DNA of 64,000 bases from Candidatus Babeliaceae bacterium (GTDB taxonomy: Bacteria; Babelota; Babeliae; Babelales; Babelaceae). Below, one piece after another: positions 3,435-21,500 of the stretch (positions are counted from its first letter, which is position 1; each line of letters opens with the position of its first letter). Below the pieces are notes generated by a model. It was not told the DNA's origin. It made no database searches and saw only the letters and a list, made by a program, of their open reading frames with translations. The position numbers and the translations under genes are program-made. The stretch covers positions 6 through 64,005 of the forward strand of contig JAIETV010000002.1 in NCBI GenBank assembly GCA_019744895.1, written 5' to 3'.

Positions 3435-4367
3435 ATGAAAAAAGCATTAGAATTTTTTTTATTTATATTAGTATTTTTTTTAAGCAAGTCGTATATTTTT
3501 TCACTGGATAATTTTATTGCTCAATATCAGCGGCCTATTACGGTACTGGAGATTACGGACTCTCAAGAGTTTTATACGCTTCGATTTGCCTCGCGCCAAA
3601 AAGGAGTTTTTGTTTTATTATCGCAAGCAGAAAAAATAGATTCTATAAAAAAAAGAGCTCAAGATTATAATAATATTGTTTTGCTTAATCCAAAGAAATT
3701 TACAACATCTTCTCTTGTTGAATTGGCTTCATGCGAACATTTTGATGTTACTTTGGTCCATGATTGGGCTATGTTGCAAAAAAACCCTTATATTGTGAGT
3801 GCTCTTTTGGCTTTGGGAGATTATCTTATTTTAGATGTTGCAAATACCTATGTTGATAAAATTTTATCTGAAGATCAAAAAAATAAAATTGTATGGAAAC
3901 ATGAGTTGCAATATGGCAAACAAAGAATCTGCCTAAAGAATTCTAAAACTTCCTTGGGTAAGGCACGTTGGGTTATGAGTTCTCTGGCGATTTCTCGTCA
4001 GCCATCGTATACCATTTTAAGTACGTTTACAGAAAAGAAATTAGTTAAAGGAGCGCATAAACAAACATCAGATTGGGTGGCTGGCATAAACCTCGTTTCA
4101 GCAATTATGCTTCATGTACAATTCCCAAATAATGAAATTTTACGTGAGAATATTAAACAATTTATGCAGATTAATCACAATGATCCTGTAATCGGTAACA
4201 TGATTGTTCAGGGAAAAAAGGTTAAATTGATAGATTTTGCAGATTCGCGTCGAAATGCTAATCAAGAAAAGTGCATCAAGGCAGCATTAAAGCTTTTTAC
4301 ATGGATGCATAGACCCAAAGATCCTTATGCTACTATCGAAAAGTACTCATACTATGTGAATAATTAG
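3435..4367 (+). CDS. Signal/anchor-bearing protein with C-terminal protein-kinase-like catalytic motifs
   Basis: GGGGG RBS upstream. Hydrophobic N-terminus MKKALEFFLFILVFFLS. INHNDPVIGNMIV...KLIDFAD fits HxDxxxxN ... DF(G/A) of the kinase-like fold (APH/choline/LPS kinase type). The N-terminal half is Rossmann-like (VLEITD...DVTLVHDW). Confidence 0.5.
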   Translation: MKKALEFFLFILVFFLSKSYIFSLDNFIAQYQRPITVLEITDSQEFYTLRFASRQKGVFVLLSQAEKIDSIKKRAQDYNNIVLLNPKKFTTSSLVELASCEHFDVTLVHDWAMLQKNPYIVSALLALGDYLILDVANTYVDKILSEDQKNKIVWKHELQYGKQRICLKNSKTSLGKARWVMSSLAISRQPSYTILSTFTEKKLVKGAHKQTSDWVAGINLVSAIMLHVQFPNNEILRENIKQFMQINHNDPVIGNMIVQGKKVKLIDFADSRRNANQEKCIKAALKLFTWMHRPKDPYATIEKYSYYVNN

Positions 4368-4374
4368 TAAAAAA

Positions 4375-4406
4375 GCCCTACGTAGCTTTCACTGCGTAGG
4401 GCTTTT
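4375..4406. terminator. Bidirectional rho-independent terminator
   Basis: AAAAA GCCCTACG tagctttcactg CGTAGGGC TTTT, between convergent genes ending at 4367 (+) and 4452 (-). Confidence 0.75.
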
Positions 4407-4451
4407 ATATTTCTAAAGCTAAAGTGCTGTAGAAAACAAAATCACTAATAT

Positions 4452-4862
4452 TTAATAGCGATCTTTGTTTCCACGGAAACCGCCGGTAGAACCTGAACGG
4501 AAGCCAGAACCAGGCGTGCGTTCGCGTGAACCGCCAAAACCACCTTGTGAACCGCTGCTTCTATAACCGCCTTGGCCGCCGCCATTGCTTCTAAAACCGC
4601 CTTGACCAGGTGTGCGGGGTTGTGGTGGACGTGCAGTATTAACACGAACTCTCTGTCCTTCAAGATCAGAATTATCAAGTGCATTAATAGCTTGTTGTGC
4701 TTGCTCGTCATCTTCCATGGTCAAGAAAGCAAAACCACGTGGCTCTCCAGTAAACTTGTCGGTCATGATTTTAACTGACGAGACTGCGCCAAATGCTTCG
4801 AAAAGCTTACGTAACGCGTCTTCAGTAACTGTGCGGGAGAGGTTCCCAACGTAAATATTCAT
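4452..4862 (-). CDS. RRM-type RNA-binding protein with Gly/Arg-rich tail
   Basis: RNP-2 IYVGNL and RNP-1 RGFAFLTM. The C-terminal tail is rich in RGG/GGF repeats. Confidence 0.85.
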   Translation of the reverse strand: MNIYVGNLSRTVTEDALRKLFEAFGAVSSVKIMTDKFTGEPRGFAFLTMEDDEQAQQAINALDNSDLEGQRVRVNTARPPQPRTPGQGGFRSNGGGQGGYRSSGSQGGFGGSRERTPGSGFRSGSTGGFRGNKDRY

Positions 4863-5020
4863 AAAAAACTCACTTAAAAAAAATAAAACAATTTGACTTT
4901 AAAAAAACTAGAAAGATTTTTTAGAGACTTTACCATCTTACCACAATTTACGGTTTTTACAATATAGTGTAAACTGACCTTTATCGTTAATCTATAACTT
5001 TATAACTCCAAAGCGTATTT

Positions 5021-6196
5021 ATGAAACAATCAATAATTCAATCATCTATCCTATCTGTCGCATTGGCAATTTTTGCTATGCTTTTTGGTTCAGGTAATAT
5101 CGTTTTTCCTCTCGGTCTTGGGCGTGACATGGGTACTATGGCACTCTATGCTATGATTGGCTTTTCTTTAACGGCGGTTTTAGTGCCCTTCCTAGGTATT
5201 ATGGCCATGACGCTTTATGGGGGTAGCTATGATTTATTTTTTGAAACTATTGGTAAAATACCAGGGAAAATAGTAATTTTTTGCTGTATGCTTCTGATTG
5301 GACCCTTTTGTGTCATTCCGCGGTCGATTGCTGTTGCCCATGGTTCTTTGAGTTGGATGTTTCCACAACTTTCCATTTTTGCTTTTAGTTTAATAGCAAC
5401 CATGATTCTCTATTCACTTACAGCTCGTCAGTCGGGGCTGTTGAATATTTTAGGTAAAATTCTTGGGCCTTTAAAGCTTTTCTTATTGAGTGCTATTATT
5501 ATTAAAGGTTTTTTTGTTGCAACTAATCCCGCAAATTGCAGTTTATCAGCAGCCTCTGTGCTTACTAAAGGTGCTTTAGTAGGCTATGGAACTTTAGATC
5601 TTCTGGGAGCATTTTTCTTTACTAATATAATTCTTATTGGACTTAAGCGTAAAATTGATGATAAGCAACTTACAAATAAGCAAATTTTTTCTATGACTTT
5701 ACAAGGCGGACTTCTGGGAAGTTTGCTTTTAGGGGCAGTTTATGCTGGATTTGTTATTGTTTCTTCTTTCCAGTCAATAGTTTGCCAAGGTGTTGATGAA
5801 AAAAAATTATTAAGCGAGTTAGCATTCCAGTTGCTTGGGCAGGCTGGTGGAGTTCTTGCTAGCATTACTATCGCAGTTGCGTGTTTAACTACTGCTGTCG
5901 CGTTGACCACCGTGTTTGCAGATTATCTTTCAAAAGATTTATTAAAGAAATCGATTTCTTACCATATGGCTTTGTATGTGACATTATTAATAACATTAAT
6001 CTTTGCAAATTATGGTTTTGAAACTATCATGAGTTTGGTTGCACCCGTAATAATGATTCTTTATCCTGCGCTTATCGCATTAGCTCTTGCAAATATAATT
6101 CGTAAGATTTTTGATATTAATTTCAGTAAGTTAGCTTTTTACGGTGTATTTGCGCTTACACTTTTGATAAATTACTACCCATTATTTTTCAGGTAA
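5021..6196 (+). CDS. brnQ: Branched-chain amino acid transport system II carrier (LIVCS family)
   Basis: Polytopic membrane protein. The N-terminal FGSGNIVFPLGLG matches the BrnQ signature FGAGNxIFPP. Confidence 0.7.
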   Translation: MKQSIIQSSILSVALAIFAMLFGSGNIVFPLGLGRDMGTMALYAMIGFSLTAVLVPFLGIMAMTLYGGSYDLFFETIGKIPGKIVIFCCMLLIGPFCVIPRSIAVAHGSLSWMFPQLSIFAFSLIATMILYSLTARQSGLLNILGKILGPLKLFLLSAIIIKGFFVATNPANCSLSAASVLTKGALVGYGTLDLLGAFFFTNIILIGLKRKIDDKQLTNKQIFSMTLQGGLLGSLLLGAVYAGFVIVSSFQSIVCQGVDEKKLLSELAFQLLGQAGGVLASITIAVACLTTAVALTTVFADYLSKDLLKKSISYHMALYVTLLITLIFANYGFETIMSLVAPVIMILYPALIALALANIIRKIFDINFSKLAFYGVFALTLLINYYPLFFR

Positions 6197-6202
6197 TACA
6201 AC

Positions 6203-7480
6203 ATGCATTCTGAGTTTCTTGTTCTTGAAAAATCACCAGCTTTATGCGGGATTTCAGATTTAAATGGTGCGAAAAATGCCGTTTTAGTAATTATGGCATC
6301 TCTTATTTTAACATCGGGAAAAAGTAAGCTTTGTAATGTCCCTTTTTCTCATGATGTTTTTCAGATGATTGCATTATTAGAATCTTTAGGGGCTGGCGTG
6401 GTTATCCATGAAGAATCCCAATCGCTTACTATCGATACAACAACTATCATCAAGCATGCTGTAAATGCTGAAATCATGAAAAAAATGCGTGCATCAATAT
6501 TGGTTATGGGGCCTCTTTTAGCACGTTTTGGAAAAGCTGCAATAGCACTTCCAGGAGGGTGTCTTATAGGAGACCGCCCTGTCGATATGCATTTAAATGC
6601 GTTTGCGCGCATGGGTGCAGAAATTTCTCTTGACGGTTCATGCGTGTACGCCCAAGCAGTACACCTAAAGGCGCAAAAATTTATTTTGGCATACCCGAGC
6701 GTCGGAGCCACTGAAAATATAATGATGGCAGCAACGCTTATACAAGGTAAAACAACTATCGTTAATGCCGCATTAGAACCTGAAGTTTTCGATTTGGCAG
6801 CTATTCTAAAAAAAATGGGTGCACATATTGATTTGTTGCCTGCGGGTGTAATTGAAATCGTTGGTGTGCCAGAACTTAAGCCGGTAACACATACTATTAT
6901 TATGGATCGTCTAGAAGCCGGCACTCTATTATTAGCAACCGCAGTTACTGGTGGGGAAATTGCCTTACCTCAAGGGCCTGGCCATTCACTCGAGGTATTT
7001 TTAGAAAAACTTTGCGAAATGGGCCATTCTGTCGACACCGGCATAGATGGTATTGGTATTTATTTTAAGGCTACCAAATCGCCCAAGGCTGTATCTTTTA
7101 AGACTATGCCCTACCCTGGGTTTCCCACAGATTTACAGGCGCCCATGATGGTTGCTCAGTGCCTGGCTGATGGGACTAGTACCGTAACAGAAACGGTTTT
7201 TGAAAATCGTATGCTACATGTTCGCGAATTACAAAAAATGGGCGCGCATATTGAGCTTGAAGGAATGATTGCCAAAATTAAAGGGGTTGATCGACTTTAT
7301 GGCGCACATCTTATAGCACCCGATATACGTGCATCTGCAGCTTTGGTTATTGCTGGTATTGCAGCTCATGGGTCATCAACGTTATCTGGTATCCATCATT
7401 TATTGCGAGGATATCAAAATCTTTGCGGAACGCTACAAAAGCTTGGCGCAAGAATTATCTACAAATCAGAAGCTATCTAG
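6203..7480 (+). CDS. murA: UDP-N-acetylglucosamine 1-carboxyvinyltransferase
   Basis: GAKNAVL, the active-site loop PGGCLIGDRPVDMHL, FPTDLQAP and the overall length. Confidence 0.95.
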   Translation: MHSEFLVLEKSPALCGISDLNGAKNAVLVIMASLILTSGKSKLCNVPFSHDVFQMIALLESLGAGVVIHEESQSLTIDTTTIIKHAVNAEIMKKMRASILVMGPLLARFGKAAIALPGGCLIGDRPVDMHLNAFARMGAEISLDGSCVYAQAVHLKAQKFILAYPSVGATENIMMAATLIQGKTTIVNAALEPEVFDLAAILKKMGAHIDLLPAGVIEIVGVPELKPVTHTIIMDRLEAGTLLLATAVTGGEIALPQGPGHSLEVFLEKLCEMGHSVDTGIDGIGIYFKATKSPKAVSFKTMPYPGFPTDLQAPMMVAQCLADGTSTVTETVFENRMLHVRELQKMGAHIELEGMIAKIKGVDRLYGAHLIAPDIRASAALVIAGIAAHGSSTLSGIHHLLRGYQNLCGTLQKLGARIIYKSEAI

Positions 7481-8564: not shown

Positions 8565-9140
8565 ATGAATATATTTATTGATGCCTATAACCTTTTAAAG
8601 CAGCTTCATGCTGTTAAGCTGGTTTCTGCCCACCAAAAAAACACATTTATTGATGAGCTTAAACAATTTGCTCGGAACAAGGGACACCACATCTATTTAG
8701 TTTATGATGGGGGAGAATCTTTCCGTCCAGAATCTGACCATATTGGCCCGATAACTATTATCCATTCAGGGCATAGATTAAGCGCAGATGAAGTAATAAA
8801 ACAAAAAATCTTAAATTTTGCCCATGAACATACTATACTTGTTTCAGACGATCGGCAATTGTGTGATTATGTGGCAATGTCTGGTTTTGCTGCCTTGGGC
8901 ACGGCAAACTTTTATAAACTTATCAAAGCCGATATTCAAAAAGAACAAAGAGCCTTTATTGAAAAAAGCATCGCCCATAAAAATCCATATTATTCGAGTA
9001 ATCCCGAACTTGATGAGCTTATGCATGAAGCCGGTTCTGTTGGTTATTATAAAGATATTGAATTATGTGAAGAATCGCATCATCCTCAGCGGTTATCAAA
9101 AAAAGAAAAAAAATTAAAAAAATTAGTAAAAAAACTATGA
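8565..9140 (+). CDS. YacP/Rae1-like NYN (PIN-like) domain protein
   Basis: The pattern IFIDAYNLL ... YLVYDGG ... IIHSG..SADEVI ... ILVSDDRQL parallels B. subtilis YacP. The C-terminus is Lys-rich. Confidence 0.6.
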   Translation: MNIFIDAYNLLKQLHAVKLVSAHQKNTFIDELKQFARNKGHHIYLVYDGGESFRPESDHIGPITIIHSGHRLSADEVIKQKILNFAHEHTILVSDDRQLCDYVAMSGFAALGTANFYKLIKADIQKEQRAFIEKSIAHKNPYYSSNPELDELMHEAGSVGYYKDIELCEESHHPQRLSKKEKKLKKLVKKL

Positions 9141-9577
9141 ATAATACCATATTTTACAATCTTAACAATTTACCAACAATAGTTGCAGAGCTTAAAGAGC
9201 TTATGAAAATATATCGCATTTTTGCATTCACAGGATCTCTGGGTGCAGGCAAAACGACACTCGTGCGCAGTTTGCTGCAAGCATGTGGCGTAACGGGGGT
9301 TATATCAAGTCCTACGTTTACTTATATAAATATTTATATAAATGCAAGCGGCAAAAAGTTTTACCACTTCGATTTGTACAGAATAACAAACCTTCAAGAG
9401 TTCATTGATGGAGGATTCGATGAATATCTTAATGATCAGAATGCATATGTTTTGATCGAGTGGCCTGAGATAATTATGCCGTTGTTAAAAAAGAATATAT
9501 GCTTTATTTCACTTGAATATATTGATGAAGAAAAAAGATCTCTTTATATATCCTGTCATCAGAAAGGGTATGTATAA
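9137..9577 (+). CDS. tsaE: tRNA threonylcarbamoyladenosine biosynthesis ATPase TsaE
   Basis: GSLGAGKTTLVRSLL, SSPTFTYIN, YHFDLYRI, IEWPE. There is a 4-nt overlap with the upstream gene. Confidence 0.88.
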   Translation: MNNTIFYNLNNLPTIVAELKELMKIYRIFAFTGSLGAGKTTLVRSLLQACGVTGVISSPTFTYINIYINASGKKFYHFDLYRITNLQEFIDGGFDEYLNDQNAYVLIEWPEIIMPLLKKNICFISLEYIDEEKRSLYISCHQKGYV

Positions 9578-9657
9578 TAAACTCTAAGGCAGCTTTTTCT
9601 TGAAAAATATCTAGGAAACGATCAAGAATAATGCACTTACGTTAGTTGCACAGATAT

Positions 9658-10182
9658 TTAGTATTTTCCGGTTTGTATGGTTGTGAGCATCGCGTGTGTA
9701 ACACGTGTGTTGTTTTCATCGATGTATTCTTTTTGAACCGGCAACTGCTCCTTAATATATAATATTTTATTATGAATATCTGCCAATTTTATATATAGAG
9801 GATGCTTTTCAAGACTGAAGTTACGTAGACCTTTAAGTGCATAGGCCATATCATTAAGATCACTCTTTAATATTTCTTCCATTCTAAAAATCGGTGTTGA
9901 CTTGCGGGTGTTCCAAGAAAACCAATTAAGAAATAAAATATCATAAAATAATTCGAATCCAGTTCGGTCGCGATGTACTCCTAAAACACGTAGTTCTTGC
10001 AGTGCTTCTGCACTCATTGGTTTAAGACTTATTAATTTTGAGTATCTCATTTTCATTGTATTATATGTTTCCTGAGCATGGGTTAGTGCTTGATCAGGTG
10101 TAGATGGCCTTTTTGCGCATGCAGATATGAGAACTATGCCTATTAATCCCATAGTTAAGTGAAATGAGAATCGCTTTTTCAT
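9658..10182 (-). CDS. Putative lipoprotein, function unknown
   Basis: Signal sequence with a lipobox-like LISAC. No family recognised. Confidence 0.55.
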   Translation of the reverse strand: MKKRFSFHLTMGLIGIVLISACAKRPSTPDQALTHAQETYNTMKMRYSKLISLKPMSAEALQELRVLGVHRDRTGFELFYDILFLNWFSWNTRKSTPIFRMEEILKSDLNDMAYALKGLRNFSLEKHPLYIKLADIHNKILYIKEQLPVQKEYIDENNTRVTHAMLTTIQTGKY

Positions 10183-10353
10183 AAGAATCCGTTTGGTTAT
10201 ATTTTTTTATATTATGTAATAATTTTATCAAATATTATAAAAATGTCAATTTGGTTATAAAAAATTTGAGATTGATTGAATGTTGAGGTTGAAATTATTT
10301 AAAAAACCCTTACACTGTATCTATTGAAAAAATAACTACATGCAATATAATAA

Positions 10354-10439
10354 GGCGAGATTCCCGAGCGGCCAAAGGGGACGGACTGTAAATCCGTTGG
10401 CATACGCCTTCGAAGGTTCGAATCCTTCTCTCGCCACCA
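10354..10439 (+). tRNA. tRNA-Tyr (GTA)
   Basis: Acceptor GGCGAGA/TCTCGCC, anticodon loop CTGTAAA, long variable arm, CCA encoded. Confidence 0.92.
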
Positions 10440-10560
10440 TCTTGGGTTACTCAAGCCAGATCTAATGCCATTCTAAAAGTATTTTTTAGAATAGCGTTAC
10501 GAAGTAAAAAAATTTGTTGCTTACCTGTTCTTAGAAAAGTACGGGAGAATTGAAATTAAC

Positions 10561-10636
10561 GCGGGAATAGCTCAATTGGTAGAGTGGCAGCCTTCCAAGC
10601 TGTAGGTTGCGGGTTCGAGTCCCGTTTCCCGCTCCA
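10561..10636 (+). tRNA. tRNA-Gly (TCC)
   Basis: Acceptor GCGGGAA/TTCCCGC, anticodon loop CTTCCAA, GGTTCGAGTCC T-arm, CCA encoded. Confidence 0.92.
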
Positions 10637-10651
10637 GATAATAATTTAGGC

Positions 10652-10727
10652 GCTGGCGTAGCTCAGTTGGTAGAGCAGCTGATTTGTAATCAGCAGGTCG
10701 TCGGTTCAAATCCGACCGCCAGCTCCA
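10652..10727 (+). tRNA. tRNA-Thr (TGT)
   Basis: Acceptor GCTGGCG/CGCCAGC, anticodon loop TTTGTAA, CCA encoded. Confidence 0.92.
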
Positions 10728-10811
10728 TACAATTTCATGCAATTTGAAGTTGTTTTTTGTTATTTTTTCGATTAATATTAATACATTAAGATCAAAAAGA
10801 TAAAGACCTTT

Positions 10812-10888
10812 GCCCACGTAGCTCAGTTGGTTAGAGCACTTCCTTGGTAAGGGAGAGGTCACCGGTTCGAATCCGGTCGCGGGCTCCA
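10812..10888 (+). tRNA. tRNA-Thr (GGT)
   Basis: Acceptor GCCCACG/CGCGGGC (one mismatch), anticodon loop TTGGTAA, CCA encoded. Confidence 0.88.
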
Positions 10889-10927
10889 AAGGCTTCTTAT
10901 TAAGAGTTTTTAACTACGCAGGTTGCC

Positions 10928-11086
10928 ATGGCAAAAGAGAATCGAATCGTTATTAAGCTTAAAAGCTCGGAAAGTCCTCACGTATACTGGACAACCAAAA
11001 ATAAAAATAATACCACGGGTCGCTTAGAAATTAAAAAATTTGACCCGGTAGTTCGTAAGCATGTGGTATATAGAGAATCTAAGTAG
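10928..11086 (+). CDS. rpmG: 50S ribosomal protein L33 (Cys-less form)
   Basis: Not in the ORF track because it is 52 aa. My translation is [52 protein letters not shown]. The YxTTKNKxNT...LExKKFxPxxRKHxxxxExK pattern is L33, and the position upstream of tRNA-Trp/secE/nusG is classical. Confidence 0.88.
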
Positions 11087-11096
11087 AGTATCATGA

Positions 11097-11172
11097 AGGC
11101 CAGTAGCTCTAACGGCAGAGCGGCAGACTCCAAATCTGCGGGTTGGGGGTTCGAATCCCTCCTGGCCTGCCA
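11097..11172 (+). tRNA. tRNA-Trp (CCA)
   Basis: Acceptor AGGCCAG/CTGGCCT, anticodon loop CTCCAAA, CCA encoded. Confidence 0.92.
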
Positions 11173-11245
11173 TACTTTTTAATCTTGGCTGCAGGCTTCC
11201 TCATTGAAAATTACTCATAGGTTGATAAGATAAAAGGCGCATAAA

Positions 11246-11437
11246 GTGAAAAATTTAACAAAATTCTTAAGTGAAGTCCGTGTAGAGCTTTCTCGAGTAG
11301 AATGGCCCACATTAAACGATTTTATAGGATCAACCGTTGTTGTTCTCTGTATAGTTGCAATTTTTGCGGTCTTTTTTGGGATAGTTGATAAAGGACTTTC
11401 TACTGTTGCCCAATATATTTTTTCTTTAGGTAAATAG
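11246..11437 (+). CDS. secE: Preprotein translocase subunit SecE
   Basis: 63 aa, GTG start, FLSEVRVELSRVEWPT followed by a single TM. Lies upstream of nusG. Confidence 0.9.
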   Translation: MKNLTKFLSEVRVELSRVEWPTLNDFIGSTVVVLCIVAIFAVFFGIVDKGLSTVAQYIFSLGK

Positions 11438-11453
11438 TTTTTAGGTGTAATGC

Positions 11454-11975
11454 ATGAAACGTTGGTATGTCATTCAGATTTTTGCAGGGTATGAAGAGGT
11501 GATTAAGGCAGATCTTCAAAAACGCATCGAAGAAGCTGGCATGCAAGATTATTTCGGTCAAGTTCTTATCCCTTCAGCTAAGATGAAACAGTTTTTTGAC
11601 GCAACTGATGCAATAAAGGATGAGCAGCTTTTTCCCGGTTACATGCTTGTTGAAATGGAAGTGCTTCCTGAGGCAATTCGTTTAGTAACAACGGTTCCGC
11701 GCGTTACACGTTTTCTTGGTGGTAAAAATCCCGTTGCACTTTCCCAAAGAGAGATAGACCGGATTATCGCCCAGATGAAGGGTGAGGTTAAACTTTCTGT
11801 TGAGCGTCATAATTTTGAAGTAAATAAAGAGGTTGAGATCGCTTCAGGCCCGTTTACGGGCTTTATGGGAATTATCAATTCCATTGATGAAGAGAATGAA
11901 AAGCTTTCGGTTATGGTAAGCATTTTTGGAAGAATGACACCGGTCGAATTGGGATTTGATCAAGTTAAACATTAA
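11454..11975 (+). CDS. nusG: Transcription termination/antitermination factor NusG
   Basis: KRWYVIQ..GYEE NGN start. FPGYMLVEM. KOW motif EVEIASGPFTGFMGII. Confidence 0.95.
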   Translation: MKRWYVIQIFAGYEEVIKADLQKRIEEAGMQDYFGQVLIPSAKMKQFFDATDAIKDEQLFPGYMLVEMEVLPEAIRLVTTVPRVTRFLGGKNPVALSQREIDRIIAQMKGEVKLSVERHNFEVNKEVEIASGPFTGFMGIINSIDEENEKLSVMVSIFGRMTPVELGFDQVKH

Positions 11976-11996
11976 AAAAGTAGGTTTTCTAAAGCT

Positions 11997-12419
11997 ATGG
12001 CAAAAGAAATAAAAGCACAAGTAAAATTGCAGATCCCCGGTGGAGCTGCAACGCCTGCGCCACCAGTTGGTTCCGCATTAGGTCAGCATGGCGTAAATAT
12101 TATGGACTTTTGTAAGCAATTCAATGCAAAGACTGCTGATAAAAAAGGCCAAACCATTCCGGTTATTATAACAATTTATAAAGATAAAAAATTTGATTTT
12201 ACTATTAAAACACCTCCAACATCAGAGCTGATTAAAAAGAAGATAAATCTCTCAAAAGGCGCTTCTAAGACTGGTTCTGAAAAAGTTGGAAAAATATCTT
12301 GGAAGGATATTGAAGAGATAGCAAAGATCAAAATGCCTGACCTTAATGCTGTAGGTATTGAACAAGCTAAAAAAACAATAGCCGGTTCAGCTCGCAGTAT
12401 GGGGCTTGAAGTATTTTAG
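11997..12419 (+). CDS. rplK: 50S ribosomal protein L11
   Basis: [32 protein letters not shown]. Confidence 0.97.
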
Positions 12420-12442
12420 TTAGTCGTAAAGGAACGTGCAGT

Positions 12443-13132
12443 ATGACTCATCAAGGTAAAAAGTATACAAAAGCGCACGAAGCACTGGGGCAAAAGAAAG
12501 TCTTTTCCCTCCAGGAGGGTGTCGCCAAGCTCAGAGAGCTTGCATATGCCCGGTTTGATGAATCTGCCGATGTTAGTGTTAATCTCGGGATTGACGCTGC
12601 AAAAGGCGATCAAGCTGTTAGAGGTTCTGTTTTGATGCCGCATGGCAGTGGCAGGATTATCAAAATTTTGGTATTTGCAAAAGGACAATACGCAGATCAG
12701 GCTGAAAAAGCAGGTGCTGACTATGTTGGTGCTGAAGATCTCATCGAGCGTATAGAGTCTGGATGGCTTGACTTTAATTATGCGATTGCAACACCTGACC
12801 TTATGGGTTTGGTAGGTAAGGTTGCGCGTATATTGGGTCCACGAGGTCTTCTTCCGAATAAAAAAACCGGAACGGTTACCTTTGACATTGCTTCGACGAT
12901 CGCTGATTTGAAAAAGGGACGATTGTTCTTTAAAAATGATAAAGCGGGAATAGTACATTTTTCTTTTGGTAAATTATCGCAGGGCAATGAAAAGCTTGCT
13001 GATAATTTAAAAGCTTTTCTTAAAGTGCTTGCGACAAGTAAGCCTGCTGCATCAAAGGGAAAGTTTATTCGCAAGATAACCGTTTCTTCTACAATGGGGC
13101 CCGGCATTCCTGTACATGCTGAAGAATTATAA
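12443..13132 (+). CDS. rplA: 50S ribosomal protein L1
   Basis: DESADVSVNLGIDAAKGDQAVRGSVLMPHGSG and LGPRGLLPN. Confidence 0.97.
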   Translation: MTHQGKKYTKAHEALGQKKVFSLQEGVAKLRELAYARFDESADVSVNLGIDAAKGDQAVRGSVLMPHGSGRIIKILVFAKGQYADQAEKAGADYVGAEDLIERIESGWLDFNYAIATPDLMGLVGKVARILGPRGLLPNKKTGTVTFDIASTIADLKKGRLFFKNDKAGIVHFSFGKLSQGNEKLADNLKAFLKVLATSKPAASKGKFIRKITVSSTMGPGIPVHAEEL

Positions 13133-13160
13133 GTGCTAGGATAGAGGTAAAGGTATAACC

Positions 13161-13679
13161 ATGAATCGTCAAGAAAAAAGTTCAGCTATTGAAATACTCA
13201 AAAATGAGTTTCAAAGTAATGAAGCAGCCTTTATTGTAGGCATGCAAGGAATGACGGTCGCTCAAGTTGAATCTCTTAGAAAAGGTGTTAGGGCGCAGGG
13301 AGGCAAATTTCAAGTTGCTAAAAACTCTTTATTGCGCATGGCAGCAAAAGATATCCCAAGTGTTGAAAATCTTTCACCTTATTTTAAGGATCAAGTTGCC
13401 GTTATTTTTGTTTCTAAAGAAGCATCAAATGTAGCTAAACTCATTTGTAATGCAACTGCGGAAAATGAGCATTTGAAAATCGTAGCTGGTTGCTATGAAT
13501 CGCGAGTGTTTGACCAGGATATGGTTAAATTCTTAGGTTCGCTACCGCCTAAAGAGATTTTAGTTGCTCAATTGTGTGGTCTTCTCAAGGCTCCAATTGC
13601 TCAACATGTTGGTTTGTTGAATCAAATTATCGTCCGGTTGTTATATGTTTTAAAACAAGCATCGGAAAAGCAAAGTTAA
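13161..13679 (+). CDS. rplJ: 50S ribosomal protein L10
   Basis: Position between rplA and rplL. GMTVAQVESLRKGVR...KFQVAKNSL pattern. Confidence 0.93.
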   Translation: MNRQEKSSAIEILKNEFQSNEAAFIVGMQGMTVAQVESLRKGVRAQGGKFQVAKNSLLRMAAKDIPSVENLSPYFKDQVAVIFVSKEASNVAKLICNATAENEHLKIVAGCYESRVFDQDMVKFLGSLPPKEILVAQLCGLLKAPIAQHVGLLNQIIVRLLYVLKQASEKQS

Positions 13680-13721
13680 TCGTCGTTTAAGGTATTATTT
13701 TTAGTATTTAGTGGAGACATT

Positions 13722-14111
13722 ATGTCAAAGTCTATGGAAAATCTCGTAAAAGAAATTAGTGGTTTAACTGTTCTTGAACTTGCAGAATTAACTAAAGCCT
13801 TAGAATCAGCTTTTGGTGTTTCTGCAGCTATGCCTATGGCAGCTGCAATGCCAACCGCTGCTGGTGAAGCTCCTGCAGGTAAAAAAGAAGAAGAAAAGAC
13901 TGAGTTTAAAGTTGAATTAGTTGATTCTGGCGCAAATAAAATAAATGTTATTAAAGCGTTACGTCAAGTAAAAAAAGATCTTGGTTTAACCGAAGCTAAG
14001 AAAATGGCAGAAGAAACTCCTTCTGTTATTGCTGAAGCGGCTTCTAAAGATGAAGCTAAAGTTATGAAAGAAACACTTGAAGCAGCTGGTGCTAAAGTTA
14101 AACTTTCATAA
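13722..14111 (+). CDS. rplL: 50S ribosomal protein L7/L12
   Basis: LTVLELAELTKALESAFGVSAA, an Ala/Pro hinge, KINVIKALRQV..LGLTEAKK. Confidence 0.97.
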   Translation: MSKSMENLVKEISGLTVLELAELTKALESAFGVSAAMPMAAAMPTAAGEAPAGKKEEEKTEFKVELVDSGANKINVIKALRQVKKDLGLTEAKKMAEETPSVIAEAASKDEAKVMKETLEAAGAKVKLS

Positions 14112-14192: not shown

Positions 14193-17100
14193 ATGTCTAG
14201 CCTGCGCACGGGCAGCGAAACTGTTCGTAGATCTTTTGGTAAGATCAAAGATATAGTTCCCGTTCCTAATCTTATTGAAGTTCAATCAAAATCATTTAAT
14301 GATTTTGTTCAGTTAGATTTTCTGCCTTCAGAACGTCAACTGATCGGCTTGGAAAAGGTCTTTAGGGATGTTTTTCCTATCGATTATAATGACAAAATGT
14401 CTCTTGAGTTTGTTAGTTATGAACTCGGATCCTGGGCATGCACCTGTGGTAAGGTCACGGGTATAACGCAGAGGTATGCATGGAGCTGTTCATCTTGTAA
14501 AAAATCAGATTGTTCACGATTAAATGATGATTTAACCTGTACATTTTGCAATAAAAACACCGCACGCTATAAAAAGTGTTCTAACTGTTTATCCAGAGTA
14601 ACGGTTCAATTGCCGTTATCTCTGGATGAATGTCGTTCAAGCGAGCAAACATTCTCTATGCAACTAAAAGTCAAAATGCAGCTTATTAGTTGGGATGTTG
14701 ATGCTCAAGGTAACAAAATTATTCGCGATATCAAAGAACAAGAAATTTTCTTTGCCGATGTTCCTGTAATGGGCGATTTATACGAAGAAGATGGTCGTTT
14801 TAAATTAGGTAATCTTGGCACCTTTTTGATTAACGGAGTCGATCGTGTTATTGTTAGCCAATTACACCGTTCGCCAGGTGTTGTTTTTTCGCAAAGTAAA
14901 AAGTCCAAAGACTCTCGCGGAAAACCATATTATTTAGCACGTGTTATCCCAATGCGTGGCTCATGGATCGATTTTGAATTTGATAGCAATGATCTTTTAT
15001 ATGTTCGTATTGATAAGAAAAAGAAATTACTCGTTACAACCTTATTGCAAGCTCTTGGAGTAGCTCGTCAGAGCATCGTTCCATTTTTCTATAAATTCGA
15101 CCAAATAACACTACAAGACGGCGTTTATCTTCAACTATTAGATGATACCGTTATCGGTTCGCGTATTGAAAAAGGTATGCTCGGTATTAAAGATGAAGTA
15201 GATTATATCGGCAGACGCATCAATCAAGAAATGCTTGCAAAGCTAAAAAAAATCGGTGTCGAATCTCTTATGCTTCGTAAGAACTCACTAATAAACAGGT
15301 CTATTGGTGCAGATATTATTGATCCTCAAACTGGAGAAATTCTTGTTGAACAGGGTCAGCTATTTACGGAAGAATTATTCGAGCAACTTAAAAAATTTAA
15401 AAAAATTCAATTTAGCCTTATTGCGACTTCCGGGTATGTTTTACAACCAACTATCCCATTGACTCTAGCTCAAGATAAAAACGCAACAGAAGAAGAAGCT
15501 TTGAAAGAGATCCATACTAAAGTATGGCCAGGGGAAAGCGCGACATTTAAAGAGATTAAAGAGCATTTGGAAGATTTATTTTTCAATCCACGGCTTTATG
15601 ATCTTACTAAAGTTGGTCGCATTCGTATGAACCGTAAACTCGGGTTGACTGTACCTGAAAATATTACGACTTTAACGCGCGAAGATATTTTCGCTACAAT
15701 TCGTTATTTAATAAATTTGCGTGAGCGCGGTGAGGGTTTTCTTGATGATATCGATCACTTGGGCAATAGACGGGTGCGTCTTGTTGGTGAACTGCTTACC
15801 AACCAGTCATATGTAGGTTTATTACGTATCGAACGGATAGTTCGTGAAAGATTTAGAATTCAAGAAATGCATGGCGCATTAATGCCACAAGATTTCTTGA
15901 ATGTTAAGCCACTAAATGCGGTATTACGTGAGTTCTTTGCAACTGGTCAGCTTACTCAATTTATGGACCAAACTAACCCACTATCGGAAATCGCCCATAA
16001 GCGACGCCTCTCTGCTCTCGGGCCAGGTGGTGTTATGAAAGATCGTGCAACATACGAAATTCGCGATGTTCATACTTCACATTATGGTAGAATCTGTCCT
16101 ATCGAAACACCAGAGGGTCAAACCGTTGGTCTTATTTCGTCATTAGCAACCTACGCATTAGTTAATCAGCTTGGCTTTATTGAAACAGCGTACCGCCCGG
16201 TTAAAAATGGTATTATCTTAAATGATGTGGTTTTCCTAGATGCTTTTGAAGAAGCGGACAAATATATTGCACAAGCAGACTCAAAATTACTCAGTAGCAA
16301 AAAAATAACAGGTGATACTGTATTCGCTCGTCATGAGGGTAACTTCATGTATGTCGATTCACAAAAAATTAATTATATTGATCTATCGCCAAAACAGTTA
16401 GTATCTGTTGCTACTGCACTTATTCCATTTCTTGAGCATGATGATGCATCGCGTGCGTTAATGGGCGCAAACATGCAACGCCAGGCGGTTCCACTTATCC
16501 GTATGCAGGCACCGATTGTGGGTACTGGGATGGAAGCTGAAATAGCTCGAGCATCTGGCGCTTGCGTGAACGCAAAACGATCTGGTGTTGTAGAATATGT
16601 ATCTTCTGAAAAAATTATTGTTCGTTCATATGAGCATGAATTTAAGCACACCGAAGATTGGATTTCTCAAGGCGTCGATATTTATTATTTAAGAAAATTT
16701 CAGCGTTCTAGCTTTAGTACCTGGATTCATCAGACTCCATTAGTTGTGGTTGGCCAAGAAGTTACAAAAGGTGAAATGCTTTCTAACAGTTCGTCTATTT
16801 CTCACGGAGAGCTTGCTTTAGGCTCAAATCTCCTTGTGGCATTCATGCCTTGGTATGGATATAACTTTGAGGACGCAGTTATTCTGAACAAACGTTTAGT
16901 TGCAGAAGATGTTTTAACCTCTGTTCATATTGATGAGTACGTTGCAGAGGCTCGTGACACGAAACTTGGCCCTGAAGAGATTACTCGTGATATTCCAAAC
17001 GTAAGCGAAGTGGCTCTTGAAGGTCTCGACGAAGATGGTATTGTACGCATTGGTACTCGAGTAAAAGCTGGCGATATTTTAGTTGGTAAAGTTACTCTTA

Positions 17101-18518
17101 AAGGTGATATTCAATTTTCGCCGGAAGAAAAGTTGCTGCGCGCAATATTTGGTGAAAAATCACGCGAAGTGCGTGACACTTCACTGCGTGTGCCACCTGG
17201 TATTGAGGGTACTGTAATCGATGTAAAAATCTTTTCGCGTAGTGGTATGAGAAAAGATAAACGTTATAAAGACATGGTTGCGCAAGAAACTGCACGCTTA
17301 GAAAATGACTTTATGATGCAGAAAATTACTTTAGAAAAAATGCTTTCTGAAAAAATTGTCGGCATGTTAGACGGTCAAAAAGCTGGGGCAAAAGCGCCTA
17401 GATCTGTTTTATCAAAAGAATTTTTTGCTGGTCAAAAGCTCGCAGAAATCCCATTTATAGAGTTATGTAATCTTTCTATTGCTGATAAAAAGCTTGCAAT
17501 GGCTATAGATCAGTTAAAGGGAACCTATGATAATCAACTGCGCATTTTGCAAGGGTTACAAGAAGAGCGTATTAATCACTTGAAAAAGGGTGATGTACTT
17601 CCTTCAGGTGTTATCAAGATGGTTAAAGTTTATATCGCTATGAAGAGATCAATTCAGGTTGGTGATAAAGTTGCAGGTCGACACGGCAATAAAGGTGTTG
17701 TCTCGACTATTGTTGCTCGTGAGGATATGCCGTTCATGGAAGATGGCACTGCCATTGATATTATTTTAAATCCTGTTGGTGTTCCTTCTCGAATGAACGT
17801 TGGTCAGATATTAGAAACAATTCTCGGTTTTGCAGGTCGTCAACTTGGTGCCCAAGTAAAAGATGCATTAGAAGAAAAAGGTATTAAACATATTAAAGAT
17901 CTCTTGGTTGAATCTTATGGCCAAGAACTTATTGCAGATTATGAAAAGCGCTATGGTGCGCAAGGGCTGAAAGATCTTGCTCAACGAACAGCAGCTCATG
18001 GCGTTCTTTATAGGACACCAGTATTTGATGGCGCATCGTTTGAAAATGATATTCAACCTTTAGTGACAAGTATGCATAATTCTCCATACGGTACCTTCAA
18101 ATTACGTGATGGTAGGACTGGCGAATACTTTGATCAACCTGTTACTGTCGGGTCCATTTATGTGATGAAACTTATTCACATGGTCGATGATAAGTTACAT
18201 GCTCGATCTGTAGGGCCATACTCACTTGTTACGCAACAGCCATTAGGCGGTAAAGCTCAAATGGGTGGCCAGCGATTCGGTGAGATGGAAGTATGGGCGC
18301 TTGAAGCGTATGGTGCTGCATATACTCTACAAGAGATGTTAACTTATAAATCTGATGATGTTTCTGGACGTCATAAGGTGTACGAAGCTATTGTTCGCGG
18401 CGAGAATATTCCAGAACCAGGGCTTCCGGAATCGTTCAACGTATTGATTAAAGAGCTTCAGAGCCTTGGTCTTCGTATTGATTTGTTAAAAAGTGGCAAG
18501 GAGGACGTCGGTGAGTAA
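14193..18518 (+). CDS. rpoB: DNA-directed RNA polymerase subunit beta, with a Cys-rich N-terminal insertion
   Basis: Start set at the ATG preceded by AAGGAG (the track ORF begins 36 nt earlier). Conserved motifs: VSQLHRSPGV, HKRRLSALGPGG, GRICPIETPEG, NMQRQAVP, GRHGNKGV, GGQRFGEMEVWALEAYGA. Confidence 0.97.
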   Translation: MSSLRTGSETVRRSFGKIKDIVPVPNLIEVQSKSFNDFVQLDFLPSERQLIGLEKVFRDVFPIDYNDKMSLEFVSYELGSWACTCGKVTGITQRYAWSCSSCKKSDCSRLNDDLTCTFCNKNTARYKKCSNCLSRVTVQLPLSLDECRSSEQTFSMQLKVKMQLISWDVDAQGNKIIRDIKEQEIFFADVPVMGDLYEEDGRFKLGNLGTFLINGVDRVIVSQLHRSPGVVFSQSKKSKDSRGKPYYLARVIPMRGSWIDFEFDSNDLLYVRIDKKKKLLVTTLLQALGVARQSIVPFFYKFDQITLQDGVYLQLLDDTVIGSRIEKGMLGIKDEVDYIGRRINQEMLAKLKKIGVESLMLRKNSLINRSIGADIIDPQTGEILVEQGQLFTEELFEQLKKFKKIQFSLIATSGYVLQPTIPLTLAQDKNATEEEALKEIHTKVWPGESATFKEIKEHLEDLFFNPRLYDLTKVGRIRMNRKLGLTVPENITTLTREDIFATIRYLINLRERGEGFLDDIDHLGNRRVRLVGELLTNQSYVGLLRIERIVRERFRIQEMHGALMPQDFLNVKPLNAVLREFFATGQLTQFMDQTNPLSEIAHKRRLSALGPGGVMKDRATYEIRDVHTSHYGRICPIETPEGQTVGLISSLATYALVNQLGFIETAYRPVKNGIILNDVVFLDAFEEADKYIAQADSKLLSSKKITGDTVFARHEGNFMYVDSQKINYIDLSPKQLVSVATALIPFLEHDDASRALMGANMQRQAVPLIRMQAPIVGTGMEAEIARASGACVNAKRSGVVEYVSSEKIIVRSYEHEFKHTEDWISQGVDIYYLRKFQRSSFSTWIHQTPLVVVGQEVTKGEMLSNSSSISHGELALGSNLLVAFMPWYGYNFEDAVILNKRLVAEDVLTSVHIDEYVAEARDTKLGPEEITRDIPNVSEVALEGLDEDGIVRIGTRVKAGDILVGKVTLKGDIQFSPEEKLLRAIFGEKSREVRDTSLRVPPGIEGTVIDVKIFSRSGMRKDKRYKDMVAQETARLENDFMMQKITLEKMLSEKIVGMLDGQKAGAKAPRSVLSKEFFAGQKLAEIPFIELCNLSIADKKLAMAIDQLKGTYDNQLRILQGLQEERINHLKKGDVLPSGVIKMVKVYIAMKRSIQVGDKVAGRHGNKGVVSTIVAREDMPFMEDGTAIDIILNPVGVPSRMNVGQILETILGFAGRQLGAQVKDALEEKGIKHIKDLLVESYGQELIADYEKRYGAQGLKDLAQRTAAHGVLYRTPVFDGASFENDIQPLVTSMHNSPYGTFKLRDGRTGEYFDQPVTVGSIYVMKLIHMVDDKLHARSVGPYSLVTQQPLGGKAQMGGQRFGEMEVWALEAYGAAYTLQEMLTYKSDDVSGRHKVYEAIVRGENIPEPGLPESFNVLIKELQSLGLRIDLLKSGKEDVGE

Positions 18519-21500
18519 TCAAATGATTAATCGTTTTAGAGAATATATTAACGCGAATCAGTTTAATGCGTTAAAAATTACTATTGCCTCTCCAGAAAAA
18601 GTGCTGTCACTTTCTTATGGCGAAGTAAAAAAAATTGAAACGATCAACTATAGAACGTTAAAACCTGAACGTGATGGTCTATTTTGTGCACGTATTTTCG
18701 GTCCTGTAAAGGATTGGGAATGTAACTGTGGCAAATATAAGCGTATGAAACATCGCGGTATAACGTGTGAAAAATGTGGGGTTGAAGTAATTCAATCTCG
18801 TGTTCGACGTGAACGAATGGGGCACATCAAATTAGTTGCTCCAGTTTGTCACATATGGTATCTCAAAGGTATTCCTAGTTATCTTGGATTACTGTTAGAT
18901 TTGCCAGTTAAAGATCTTGAAAGAATTATTTATTTTGACGCATATATGGTTATTGACCAGGGTAAATCACCATATCCACGCAAGACCTTATTGTCTTCTG
19001 CCGATTATGATAATTACTTAGATTTGCATCCAGAAGATACTTTATTTAAAGCAGAAATTGGTGCGGAGGCAGTTAGATTAATACTGGCAATGTTTGATTT
19101 GCCTTTAGAAATAGCTCAATTGCAACAAGAGTATTCAAAAACTACCTCAGTGGCGGCTCGTCATAAAATCATGCGTCGCATTAAAGTTCTTACTGGACTA
19201 CAACAAGCTGCAATTAAGCCAGAATGGATGGTCATGACAGTATTACCAGTGTTGCCACCAGATTTGCGCCCATTGGTACCTTTAGAAGGGGGTCGGTTTG
19301 CAAGCTCAGATTTGAATGAGCTGTACCGCCGTGTATTGAACAGAAATATCCGTCTTGCACGCCTTATGGAGATTGATGCACCTTCAGTTATTATCAAAAA
19401 CGAAAAACGCATGCTTCAAGAAGCTGTTGACGCTCTTATTGATAATGGTCGACGTGGTCAACCAGTGCGTGGCTCTAACAAGCGTCCATTGAAATCGCTC
19501 AGTGAAATGCTTCGTGGCAAACAGGGTCGCTTCAGACAAAACTTATTAGGTAAACGTGTTGACTATTCAGGCCGTTCAGTCATTGTTGTTGATCCTGAAC
19601 TTAAAATAGATCAATGCGGACTACCAAAAGCAATGGCATTAGAACTATTCAAATCTCATATTTTAGCGGGCCTTTTAGCCAGTGAGTTAGCTCCTAATCT
19701 GCGCGCTGCAAAACGGATGGTTGAAGATTCAGAACCTATCGTATGGGATGTACTTGCAGATGTCGTAAAAGATCAAACTGTTCTTTTAAATCGTGCACCT
19801 ACATTACATAGGCTTGGTATTCAAGCGTTTAAGCCTATTTTGGTTGATGGTAAATCCATTAAGATTCATCCGCTTGTATGTAAAGCATTTAATGCTGACT
19901 TTGATGGTGATCAGATGGCTGTTCATATACCATTGAGTGCGCAATCGCGGGAAGAATCAAAAAATCTCATTCTTTCTACAAAAAACATTCTTTCTCCTGC
20001 CAATGGTCGTCCAATAATGGTTCCTTCGCAGGACATGATTCTTGGATTGCATTACTTGACTAAAGTTCGTTACAACGTTCTTGGAGAAGGTCTTGTCTTT
20101 TCGTCCCCTTCAGAAGTAGTAGCTGCTTACGAACATGAACGCTGCTCATTACATGCGCGCATTAAAGTTCGCCTAGGCGATAAAATTGTTGAGACTACAG
20201 TAGGTCGCATCATATTGTTTGTAGCAATTCCAGAAGGTTCCGATTTTGAATGGGTGAATAAAATTCTTACCACAAGTGATTTATCAAAACTTGTTGAACG
20301 CGTCTATTATCGCTTTGGTAGTGAAGCAACAGTTATTTGTTTAGACAATATTAAAAAATTAGGCTTTAAGCATTCTACTGCTGCGGGTATTTCATTTTCT
20401 ATGAAGGATTTAATCACTCCAGATAAAAAAGAATCGATAATTAAAAAAGCTGAAAAAGAAGTTCAAAAAGTTGAGCAGATGTACCTTGATGGTATTATCA
20501 CCAATGGTGAACGATATAATAAAGTGGTAAGTATTTGGGCGCGTGCAACTACTGATGTTGCCCAAAATATGACAGTTAATCTTTCACAGCAGGATACGCA
20601 AGCATACCTTAATGAAGAAAAAATAAGCCAACCATTTAATTCTATCTTCTTGATGCTTGAATCAGGTGCTAAAGGCTCTCGTGATCAAATCAAGCAGCTT
20701 GTTGGTATGCGTGGTCTTATGGCTCGACCGTCTGGTGACATTATGGAAACACCGGTTAAGAGTAATTTTAAAGATGGGCTTTCTGTTTTTGAATACTTTA
20801 TTTCCACGCATGGTGCTCGTAAAGGTCAAGCTGATACTGCTCTTAAAACGGCAAATGCGGGTTATTTAACGCGTAAGCTAATTGACGTTGCACAGGATGT
20901 TGTTATTACTATGCCAGATTGCAAAACATTAGGCTTTGTTATGCTTGAAGATTTGCAAGAAGGTGGCGATATCATTTATCCACTTGCAAACAGGGGATTT
21001 AGTCGAGTAGTTGCGACTGATGTTAAAGATGAAATTTCTGGGCAGTTGATTTTTAAACAAGGCCACGTTATTCGTCGAGAAGATATTGAAAAAATAAGTA
21101 ATTCAGTGATTTCTAAAATTCCAGTTCGTTCTGTTCTAACCTGCCAGGCAAAACGTGGTGTTTGTGCTGCATGTTACGGCCTTGATATGTCGAAAAACGA
21201 TATGGTTGAAATCGGTTCAACTGTCGGTATTATCGCTGCGCAATCGATCGGTGAACCAGGAACACAGCTTACTATGAGAACTTTCCATATTGGTGGTACG
21301 GCGAGTTTATCAGAGCAATCATCCTTTGTAGCAAAAGCAGCAGGTAAAGTTGTATTTAGCAACTTATATGCTGAAAAAAATAAGGATGGCCAAACCGTTG
21401 TTATGAATCGTAGTTCCAAAATGGCTATTGTATCACCTGATGGCAGAGAGCTACAAAAGCATGATCTTGAATACGGCTCAGTGCTTCTTGTTCAAGAAGG

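Follow-up and report, generated by a model that had tools for sequence, protein, structure and literature searches.

Lineage-specific insertions in the β subunit of RNA polymerase (RNAP) from bacteria form a well-known class (PMC2939025). A 2024 survey recognized five insertion sites in β, all located in uD2-uD5 and mostly occupied by the BEAN fold, small unclassified insertions being set aside (PMC11515920). We report here on a cysteine-rich insertion in the RpoB protein encoded by a stretch of 64,000 nucleotides from a Candidatus Babeliaceae bacterium (assembly GCA_019744895.1, contig JAIETV010000002.1, positions 6 to 64,005), hereafter called the window. Similarly to β-i4/SI1, β-i9/SI2, and β-i11 (BBM2/“BEAN”), this insertion lies in frame between universal segments, is found in certain phyla, and is a non-catalytic element of the surface. 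It differs from the insertions of the survey by its site, in the N-terminal segment of β1 (β-uD1), and from most known β insertions, which exhibit the BBM2/BEAN fold, by its own fold, predicted to be a metal-binding ribbon. We consider it, with moderate confidence, as a genuine and selectively maintained lineage-specific insertion domain, of nested layout and probably holding two zinc ions, that would serve as a surface adaptor on β1.

Bacterial RNAP is usually described with two structural zinc ions, located in β'. A conserved zinc module in β, if true, would imply two extra metal sites and a new surface on the protrusion in whole phyla. To our knowledge, the transcription machinery of Acidobacteriota and Dependentiae has never been studied structurally. 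Our full-text literature search, whose coverage did not extend to the catalogue of RNAP insertions of Lane and Darst (2010), returned nothing on a zinc or cysteine module in bacterial β, in Acidobacteria or in Dependentiae, and searching under the names β-i1, β-i2, and β-i3 yielded unrelated papers only. The catalogue of Lane and Darst reportedly took in Acidobacterial genomes, and the Acidobacterial version of the insert may have been recorded there as a sequence feature. We found no account of this insert as a zinc domain, as an element resembling the zinc-binding domain (ZBD) of β', or in Dependentiae, and the combination of this site with a metal-binding fold is absent from the 2024 survey.

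Site and distribution of the insertion in RpoB

The rpoB gene of the window (14193..18518, on the plus strand, as are all rpoB and rpoC features below) is an uninterrupted open reading frame (ORF) encoding 1441 amino acids (aa). It starts with an ATG at 14193, with an AAGGAG Shine-Dalgarno sequence 5' of it, and its stop is at 18518. The product matched NCBIfam TIGR02013 (rpoB) at 1606 bits and every Pfam Rpb2 domain. The genomic context is the standard rplKAJL-rpoBC arrangement, with rplK-rplA-rplJ-rplL upstream and rpoC next downstream. The insertion module occupies aa 80-142 (14430..14618; SWACTCG...RVTVQLPL), between the flanks ...SLEFVSYELG and SLDECRSSEQTFSMQLKVKMQL.

An earlier reading of these letters, made without database searches and called here the sequence-only reading, had described the module at 14427-14615 (aa 79-141), i.e., shifted by one residue from our placement. 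The peptide that it quoted, SWACTCGKVTGITQRYAWSCSSCKKSDCSRLNDDLTCTFCNKNTARYKKCSNCLSRV, was found letter for letter and in frame within the rpoB ORF. It had also proposed an in-frame insertion in the N-terminal part of RpoB, at the position of the E. coli YRLGEP/DVQEC junction, and this is indeed where the alignments with solved RpoBs break, in the β1 (protrusion) domain. The N-terminal 336 residues matched all of the solved RpoB sequences (53/53), none of which spans aa 80-142. Those ranked highest (E. coli, Thermus, and others) aligned with residues 1-79 of the query and then with residue 143 onward, about five residues of the solved chain bridging the two aligned stretches in the printed alignments: the alignment of 7ye1 reaches residue 79 and picks up again at 85, and that of E. 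coli picks up at residue 81. The net insertion amounts to ~58 residues, a module of 63 residues standing in place of a loop of about five.

Nine of the 13 cysteines of the 1441-aa RpoB are gathered in these 63 residues (C83, C85, C99, C102, C107, C116, C119, C129, and C132), an enrichment with a binomial P(≥9) of ~3e-13 given the cysteine frequency of 0.29% outside the insert. The insert and rpoB have equal G + C contents (0.397 and 0.396, respectively), and there is therefore no sign of foreign DNA.

We searched the N-terminal 260 aa of RpoB against 5.8 billion proteins, the matches listed being those of up to ~1.7 times the query length, i.e., shorter than full-length RpoBs. The closest relatives (60-82% identity) belonged to Candidatus Dependentiae or Babeliales wherever they were named, and all Dependentiae RpoBs covering the site carried the module. 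The next-best matches (~45% identity) came from Acidobacteriota (Blastocatellia, “Acidobacteria bacterium,” and others), with a cysteine-rich insert at the same site. Searching 1.84 billion cluster representatives with a profile of aa 64-164 (E ≤ 0.001) gave matches to only 235 of them. Among the matches listed, we recovered four groups: Dependentiae RpoB, Acidobacteria-type RpoB, a family of ~1250-aa proteins (the β-β' fusion family described below), and two unrelated repeat proteins.

We also scanned one genome per species with a degenerate DNA pattern, which produced ~110 true matches and ~11 chance matches. The true ones corresponded to many classes of Acidobacteriota [Holophagae (including the cultured Acanthopleuribacter pedis), Thermoanaerobaculia, Aminicenantes, Vicinamibacterales, Multivorans, and Sulfomarinibacter], to Dependentiae/TM6/Babeliales, to Streptomyces (the ~1250-aa family), and to four genomes with a minimal version. 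The latter is a form with four cysteines and ~25 residues at the same site (W-E-C-x-C-G-E-[FY]-K-G-L-G-G-x3-C-x-x-C-G), which a further homologue search assigned to Nitrospinota and Tectomicrobia/Entotheonellia (loci L049, L058, L083, and L096; proteins P0247 and P0314-P0330). In the relatives P0315-P0317 and P0323 the loop is kept and its four cysteines are all replaced together, so that the unit of Nitrospinota/Tectomicrobia is either complete or devoid of all four. Binatota and Myxococcota RpoBs have no insert (LEFVSYNLDKPKYDVDEC).

We thus found an extra segment between conserved blocks with a restricted and coherent distribution, as expected for a lineage-specific insertion: Dependentiae, Acidobacteriota, and Nitrospinota/Tectomicrobia only, plus the fusion paralogue of Streptomyces. 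In this respect the sequence-only reading needs correction: the module is not confined to one lineage, being general in Acidobacteriota and present in a four-cysteine form in Nitrospinota/Tectomicrobia.

The same comparison bears on the possibility that the segment is an artefact or the remnant of a selfish element (misassembly, frameshift, intein, or mobile insertion), to which we attach a practically negligible probability. Error-prone assemblies do exist among the relatives, P0049 and P0063 being truncated or frameshifted downstream of the module. However, the frame is continuous and the base composition is that of the gene, hundreds of independent assemblies, spread over several phyla, place the same module at this site (including more than 80 distinct Dependentiae sequences), and the family scan revealed no intein or transposase signatures. 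The comparative data thus refute such an origin; the sequence-only reading had already considered an assembly or frameshift artefact unlikely because the frame is unbroken.

Two observations concern the annotation of these relatives. Five loci titled “uncultured Pseudomonadota bacterium” (L064, L069, L080, L091, and L105, from third-party-annotated metagenome bins) carry an rpoB that is clearly of the Dependentiae type, and the rpoB of L030, titled “delta proteobacterium,” is of the Acidobacteria type; judging from these genes, the bins appear to be mislabelled. Moreover, for many relatives of this rpoB in the databases the gene call covers a short N-terminal fragment only, and this is so even on contigs of megabase size (P0005 and P0006, of 300 and 302 aa, on contigs of 1.35-1.37 Mb; also P0009, P0014, P0049, and P0063). 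Several of them finish in out-of-frame tails just past A/T homopolymer runs, e.g., after IDKKKK. These fragmentary calls suggest indel errors, introduced when AT-rich genomes were assembled from long reads, and not genes that are truly split.

Cysteine pattern, fold, and layout of the module

We numbered the core cysteines from C1 to C8 (C1/C2 = C83/C85, C3/C4 = C99/C102, C5/C6 = C116/C119, C7/C8 = C129/C132) and compared them in an alignment of Dependentiae and in a joint alignment of Dependentiae and Acidobacteriota. They form four knuckles: C83-x-C85 (14439..14447), preceded by the invariant W81; C99-x-x-C102 (14487..14498), at the turn of a predicted β-hairpin (AlphaFold2 strands at aa 96-99 and 105-107); C116-x-x-C119 (14538..14549); and C129-x-x-C132 (14577..14588), followed by a conserved (S/T)RV. 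The first and fourth knuckles were invariant in both alignments and the third was invariant in full-length modules. In the joint alignment, the eight core cysteines, W81, and G90 were all invariant. The conservation of the cysteines in relatives, which the sequence-only reading had put forward as a check, was thus confirmed in two phyla. The same reading had singled out one cysteine as an extra, and the comparison agrees: C107 (14511..14513) is present in 51 of the 83 distinct Dependentiae modules, swapped for V, L, S, T, H, or Y in others, and lacking in Acidobacteriota, in Nitrospinota, and in the fusion family. Beyond the cysteines, the motifs RY-W, SRL, and ARYK are well conserved within Dependentiae modules.

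AlphaFold2, run on aa 64-164 with an alignment of 28 sequences, predicted a compact and confident small β-rich module [predicted local distance difference test (pLDDT) of 91-96 over aa 84-133] with five short strands, in which C99xxC102 and C129xxC132 sit at hairpin turns with strands on either side. The cysteine pattern (CxC, CxxC, CxxC, CxxC), with pairs at hairpin turns, is that of zinc-ribbon knuckles. A Foldseek search of the module against the PDB gave no significant match (best E = 0.45), the weak top matches being all zinc ribbons (Rpb12/RpoP, TFIIE, MCM, and Sir2).

The homologous Acidobacterial modules gave stronger results against Pfam, reaching or passing the gathering scores of double or single zinc ribbons [DZR (PF12773), DZR_2, Zn_Ribbon_1 (PF13240), and DUF7577], none of which is matched by the module of the window. 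The values were 2.8e-9 for DUF7577 (36.8 bits for a gathering score of 28), 8e-7 for DZR, whose match spans the whole module (29.5 vs. 27.3 bits), and 1.5e-5 for Zn_Ribbon_1, at the cut-off; weaker matches were obtained with the TFIIB, GATA, and S27e ribbons. The zinc-ribbon-like nature proposed by the sequence-only reading is thus supported by these families and by the TFIIB type, and the structure prediction that it had called for agrees with it. No match to the BEAN/BBM2 fold was found in the Pfam or Foldseek searches, in which all matches were zinc ribbons.

The insert departs from the Pfam double zinc ribbons by its first pair, which is CxC and not CxxC, and by its position internal to RpoB, whereas these families are free-standing or terminal domains. 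The ribbons of archaeal and eukaryotic RNAPs (Rpb2/RpoB C-terminal, Rpb12/RpoP, Rpb9, TFIIB, and TFIIS) are likewise small modules of four cysteines with β-hairpin knuckles, carried by RNAP or its factors. Rpb12/RpoP was the top, non-significant, Foldseek match and the TFIIB ribbon matched C3-C6, but the insert is bacterial, occupies another subunit position, is a double unit, and shows no significant similarity to them in sequence or structure.

Most likely, the module holds two zinc ions. An element responsive to redox state or to iron, with an Fe-S cluster or reversible disulfides in place of structural zinc, appears very improbable. Such an element would fit eight to nine closely spaced cysteines, and Fe-S clusters occur in some RNAP subunits of archaea and eukaryotes. 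However, CxC/CxxC knuckles at hairpin turns followed by a glycine are a zinc-ribbon signature, there is no CxxCxxC...CP motif, and the family matches are all zinc ribbons.

The cysteines lost in individual lineages were informative for the layout of the two sites. In a comparison of ~225 distinct complete modules, C1/C2 were kept in 82 of 83 Dependentiae modules and in all 133 of the Acidobacteria type, and C7/C8 in 83/83 and 132/133, respectively, the single exception being a frameshifted fragment. Conversely, the four inner cysteines were lost (0-1 left) in 17 of the 83 Dependentiae modules, corresponding to at least four sequence-distinct lineages, by substitution of C3/C4 together with a small deletion of the C5/C6 hairpin. 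The Acidobacterial locus L031 has lost its inner cysteines with the same outcome as in the reduced Dependentiae, and a clean deletion leaves CxC...CxxC in L021, L023, L078, P0153, and P0176. Not a single module among the ~225 keeps C1-C4 with C5-C8 lost, nor the reverse.

Since the outer pairs are almost never lost and the four middle cysteines are lost repeatedly, we favour a nested layout, which we regard as rather probable. In this layout, C83/C85 and C129/C132 would make up an outer clasp for zinc, located at the base of the insert; this indispensable part resembles the β' ZBD. C99/C102 and C116/C119 would form an inner classical zinc ribbon, dispensable and projecting from the clasp, and C107 would be a non-essential extra.

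In sequence, the outer unit is closest, according to hhalign and a permutation test, to the ZBD of β' itself, encoded 4 kb downstream of the insert in the adjacent rpoC (18712..18777). The motif W/Y-E-C-x-C-G ... C-x-x-C-G, with 12 residues between the pairs, is common to the insert and to the β' ZBD (C70, C72, C85, and C88 in E. coli). The insert starts with G-x-W-x-C-x-C-G, of which W-x-C-x-C-G is also found in the β' domain. In the window, the insert reads W81-A-C-T-C-G...x13...C-S-S-C and the β' domain D-W-E-C-N-C-G-x12-C-E-K-C-G, and in Acidobacteriota and Nitrospinota the insert is W-E-C-x-C-G-x12-C-x-x-C-G, with the very spacing of the β' ZBD. The insert thus displays the ZBD-like spacing, CxC-x12(13)-CxxC-G with a preceding aromatic residue.

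Comparing the joint alignment with the β' ZBD segment, hhalign gave a probability of 85% (E = 6e-6 over 28 columns), with a match running through C3xxC4. Shuffles with fixed cysteines gave z = 3.6-5.7 for eleven inserts of the minimal and Acidobacterial groups, and z = 1.4-4.4 when W and both knuckle glycines were fixed as well. When an Acidobacterial module was run with phmmer against the PDB in an unbiased search, β'/γ ZBDs were among the few weak matches (E = 0.3-2.4). Both elements belong to RNAP large subunits with adjacent genes. However, the β' ZBD is located in the clamp, at the RNA exit, and the insert in the β protrusion, where, in Dependentiae and Acidobacteriota, it has a second four-cysteine unit lacking in the β' ZBD.

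By its sequence, the outer unit resembles a copied β' ZBD. The sequence-only reading had opposed the module to the zinc motifs normally found in β'; in view of this likeness, there is more than an opposition between the two. The simplest reading of the minimal form would be a ZBD-like finger, arisen by duplication or convergence, to which a ribbon was added in the form found in Acidobacteriota and Dependentiae.

Several of these results nevertheless weigh against the nested layout and its two-zinc reading. The module of the window itself had, as best Pfam match, zf-C2HC5 at only E = 0.35. C1-C4 have the exact spacing of the β' ZBD, and DUF7577 (2.8e-9) and Zn_Ribbon_1 (1.5e-5) span C5-C8 as one unit, both fitting a sequential layout. 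The module could then consist of two zinc ribbons in series, a ZBD-like finger with C83/C85 and C99/C102, to which a short ribbon of the Zn_Ribbon_1 type with C116/C119 and C129/C132 was appended, an alternative that we consider possible but clearly the less likely of the two. It would account for the 12-13 residues between C2 and C3, for the hhalign match extending through C3xxC4, for the best Pfam matches of the Acidobacterial modules falling on C5-C8 with DZR over the whole module, and for the C4-to-C5 segment being the most length-variable of the module, as an inter-domain linker would be.

However, the survivors in at least five independent reduced lineages are always C1, C2, C7, and C8, i.e., half of each of the two serial sites, and no lineage has lost one whole ribbon with the other intact, which would have been the simplest expected outcome. 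In addition, C3-C6 also match single-site ribbons (TFIIB, GATA, eL43, eS27, and Auto_anti-p27). Taken by themselves, the comparative data on cysteine loss point to C129/C132, rather than C99/C102, as the second ligand pair. The pairing proposed by the sequence-only reading (CxC with the first CxxC, then CxxC with CxxC) is thus disfavoured by the patterns of cysteine loss, which associate the first and last pairs, although the family matches are compatible with it.

The different forms of the insert can be arranged in a graded series, from no insert (most bacteria) to the four-cysteine form (Nitrospinota/Tectomicrobia) and the eight-cysteine form (Acidobacteriota and Dependentiae), which would illustrate how a domain accretes within an essential enzyme. 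The position of Dependentiae among the phyla is described as open, one early tree setting them beside Acidobacteria (PMC4776705), and the eight-cysteine insert that the two share may count as a rare genomic change relevant to this question. When the insert was removed, the flanking RpoB of Dependentiae showed ~49-53% identity equally to Acidobacteriota, to Nitrospinota, and to groups without insert, and hence gave no independent support for common descent.

Role of the module and its occurrence in a β-β' fusion protein

The module is also present in a rare family of fusion proteins (1180-1325 aa) from Streptomyces and metagenomes, e.g., P0200 (S. chartreusis), P0266 (S. canus), and P0301 (loci L001, L002, L040, L043, L067, L072, and L092; proteins P0195-P0204 and P0296-P0302). 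These proteins comprise, in order, an N-terminal helical region, the N-terminus of RpoB with the zinc module, an Rpb2_6 piece, and the N-terminus of β' with its own ZBD (Rpb1_1). All eight cysteines of the module are invariant in the family, and this module scores higher with the Dependentiae profile than with the Acidobacterial one (48.8 vs. 35.6 bits). We detected neither NADFDGD nor any DxDxD motif in the fusion proteins, which are, judging from their sequences, catalytically dead. AlphaFold2 produced a poor model of the fusion protein from eight sequences [pLDDT 54.6, predicted TM-score (pTM) 0.35].

In RpoB, the module lies in β1, separated by a long stretch of sequence from the catalytic and Rif regions, and is therefore not catalytic. 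The β1/protrusion flanks the transcription bubble at its upstream fork and carries the docking surface of Mfd-RID and CarD-RID, whose IKE motif (aa 180-182 here) is conserved. The most plausible role would be docking or contact with nucleic acid, in line with the docking site suggested by the sequence-only reading: the module could act as a rigid zinc-stabilised surface adaptor on the protrusion, offering a contact to a partner protein, to upstream DNA, or to nascent RNA. The strictness of the outer site, the maintenance of non-cysteine motifs in Dependentiae, and the retention of the module in a reduced paralogue suggest that it is a functional zinc-stabilised surface element. In particular, the retention of the module with eight invariant cysteines in the reduced β-β' fusion argues for a functional unit rather than filler.

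The positive charge of the module had been a possible general argument for nucleic-acid binding. The isoelectric point of the Dependentiae module is ~9.1 (basic), against 7.0-7.8 (near neutral) for Acidobacteriota and 5.2 (acidic) for the fusion family. As the charge differs from one phylum to another, we rejected this argument, and this variation weakens a general nucleic-acid-binding role. The repeated loss of the inner ribbon and the loss of all cysteines in some Nitrospinota/Tectomicrobia also count against a maintained function, as they indicate that at least some of the module is dispensable.

These data could be explained by a tolerated and largely neutral surface insertion, in which zinc would serve folding only and which would have no partner or regulatory role. 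Besides the many losses of the inner ribbon, the loop kept in some Nitrospinota/Tectomicrobia with all four cysteines of the minimal form replaced, and the surface charge differing between phyla, this reading can invoke the precedent of several lineage-specific insertions of RNAP, such as E. coli β-i4 and β-i9, historically named “dispensable regions” (PMC2939025). We treat it as a serious alternative, yet judge it rather unlikely: the outer four cysteines, W81, and G90 are essentially invariant across anciently diverged phyla, the RY-W, SRL, and ARYK motifs are conserved within Dependentiae, and the module survives in a fusion protein that has discarded most of β.

The surroundings of the fusion genes were rather uniform. 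In the six loci with a visible upstream region (6/6), the fusion gene is directly downstream of a gene for a STAND-type ATPase of 426-471 aa with weak matches to Avs1b and STAND_TPR. In L001, the fusion gene is located at 10001-13759 and the STAND gene at 8712-9992 of the locus, and in L002 at 2880-6719 and 1461-2876, respectively. The neighborhood includes integrase-like, pPIWI_RE, Mrr, helicase, and SbcCD genes and resembles a defence island. The fusion protein matched no PADLOC family, and our literature search found no published description of it. A dead β-β' fusion with the same module beside a STAND ATPase may be a new defence or regulatory cassette, in which the pair may act as an RNAP-mimic sensor or decoy.

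A broader scenario can be proposed, which we present as speculative and improbable as a whole. The module would have originated as a transplanted copy of the β' ZBD to which the inner ribbon was added later, providing these polymerases with another finger of the ZBD type on the opposite wall at the upstream DNA/RNA-exit side, and its eight-cysteine form would be a rare change shared only by Dependentiae and Acidobacteriota. Considering that the module is retained beside a β' ZBD in the fusion protein, the two fingers might constitute a recognition surface targeted by phage or host factors, the fusion being an RNAP decoy or sensor in an undescribed defence system.

Other features of the window

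A second, small insertion is present in the same β1 region, at aa 196-207 (14778..14813). This segment of 12 residues, LYEEDGRFKLGN, sits between the conserved PVM-D and GTFLINGV segments. It was found in all Dependentiae of the Dependentiae alignment and corresponds to a gap in Acidobacteriota and in every solved RpoB.

Elsewhere in the window, two 5S rRNA genes (1041-1173 and 1804-1936) lie 3' of the 23S rRNA gene, as a direct repeat of 133 nucleotides with 99% identity. Between them, a 153-aa ORF (1284-1745) matched S-adenosylmethionine decarboxylase (Pfam AdoMet_dc, 1.6e-30). It is unusual for an rRNA operon to end with a protein gene enclosed by two copies of the 5S gene.

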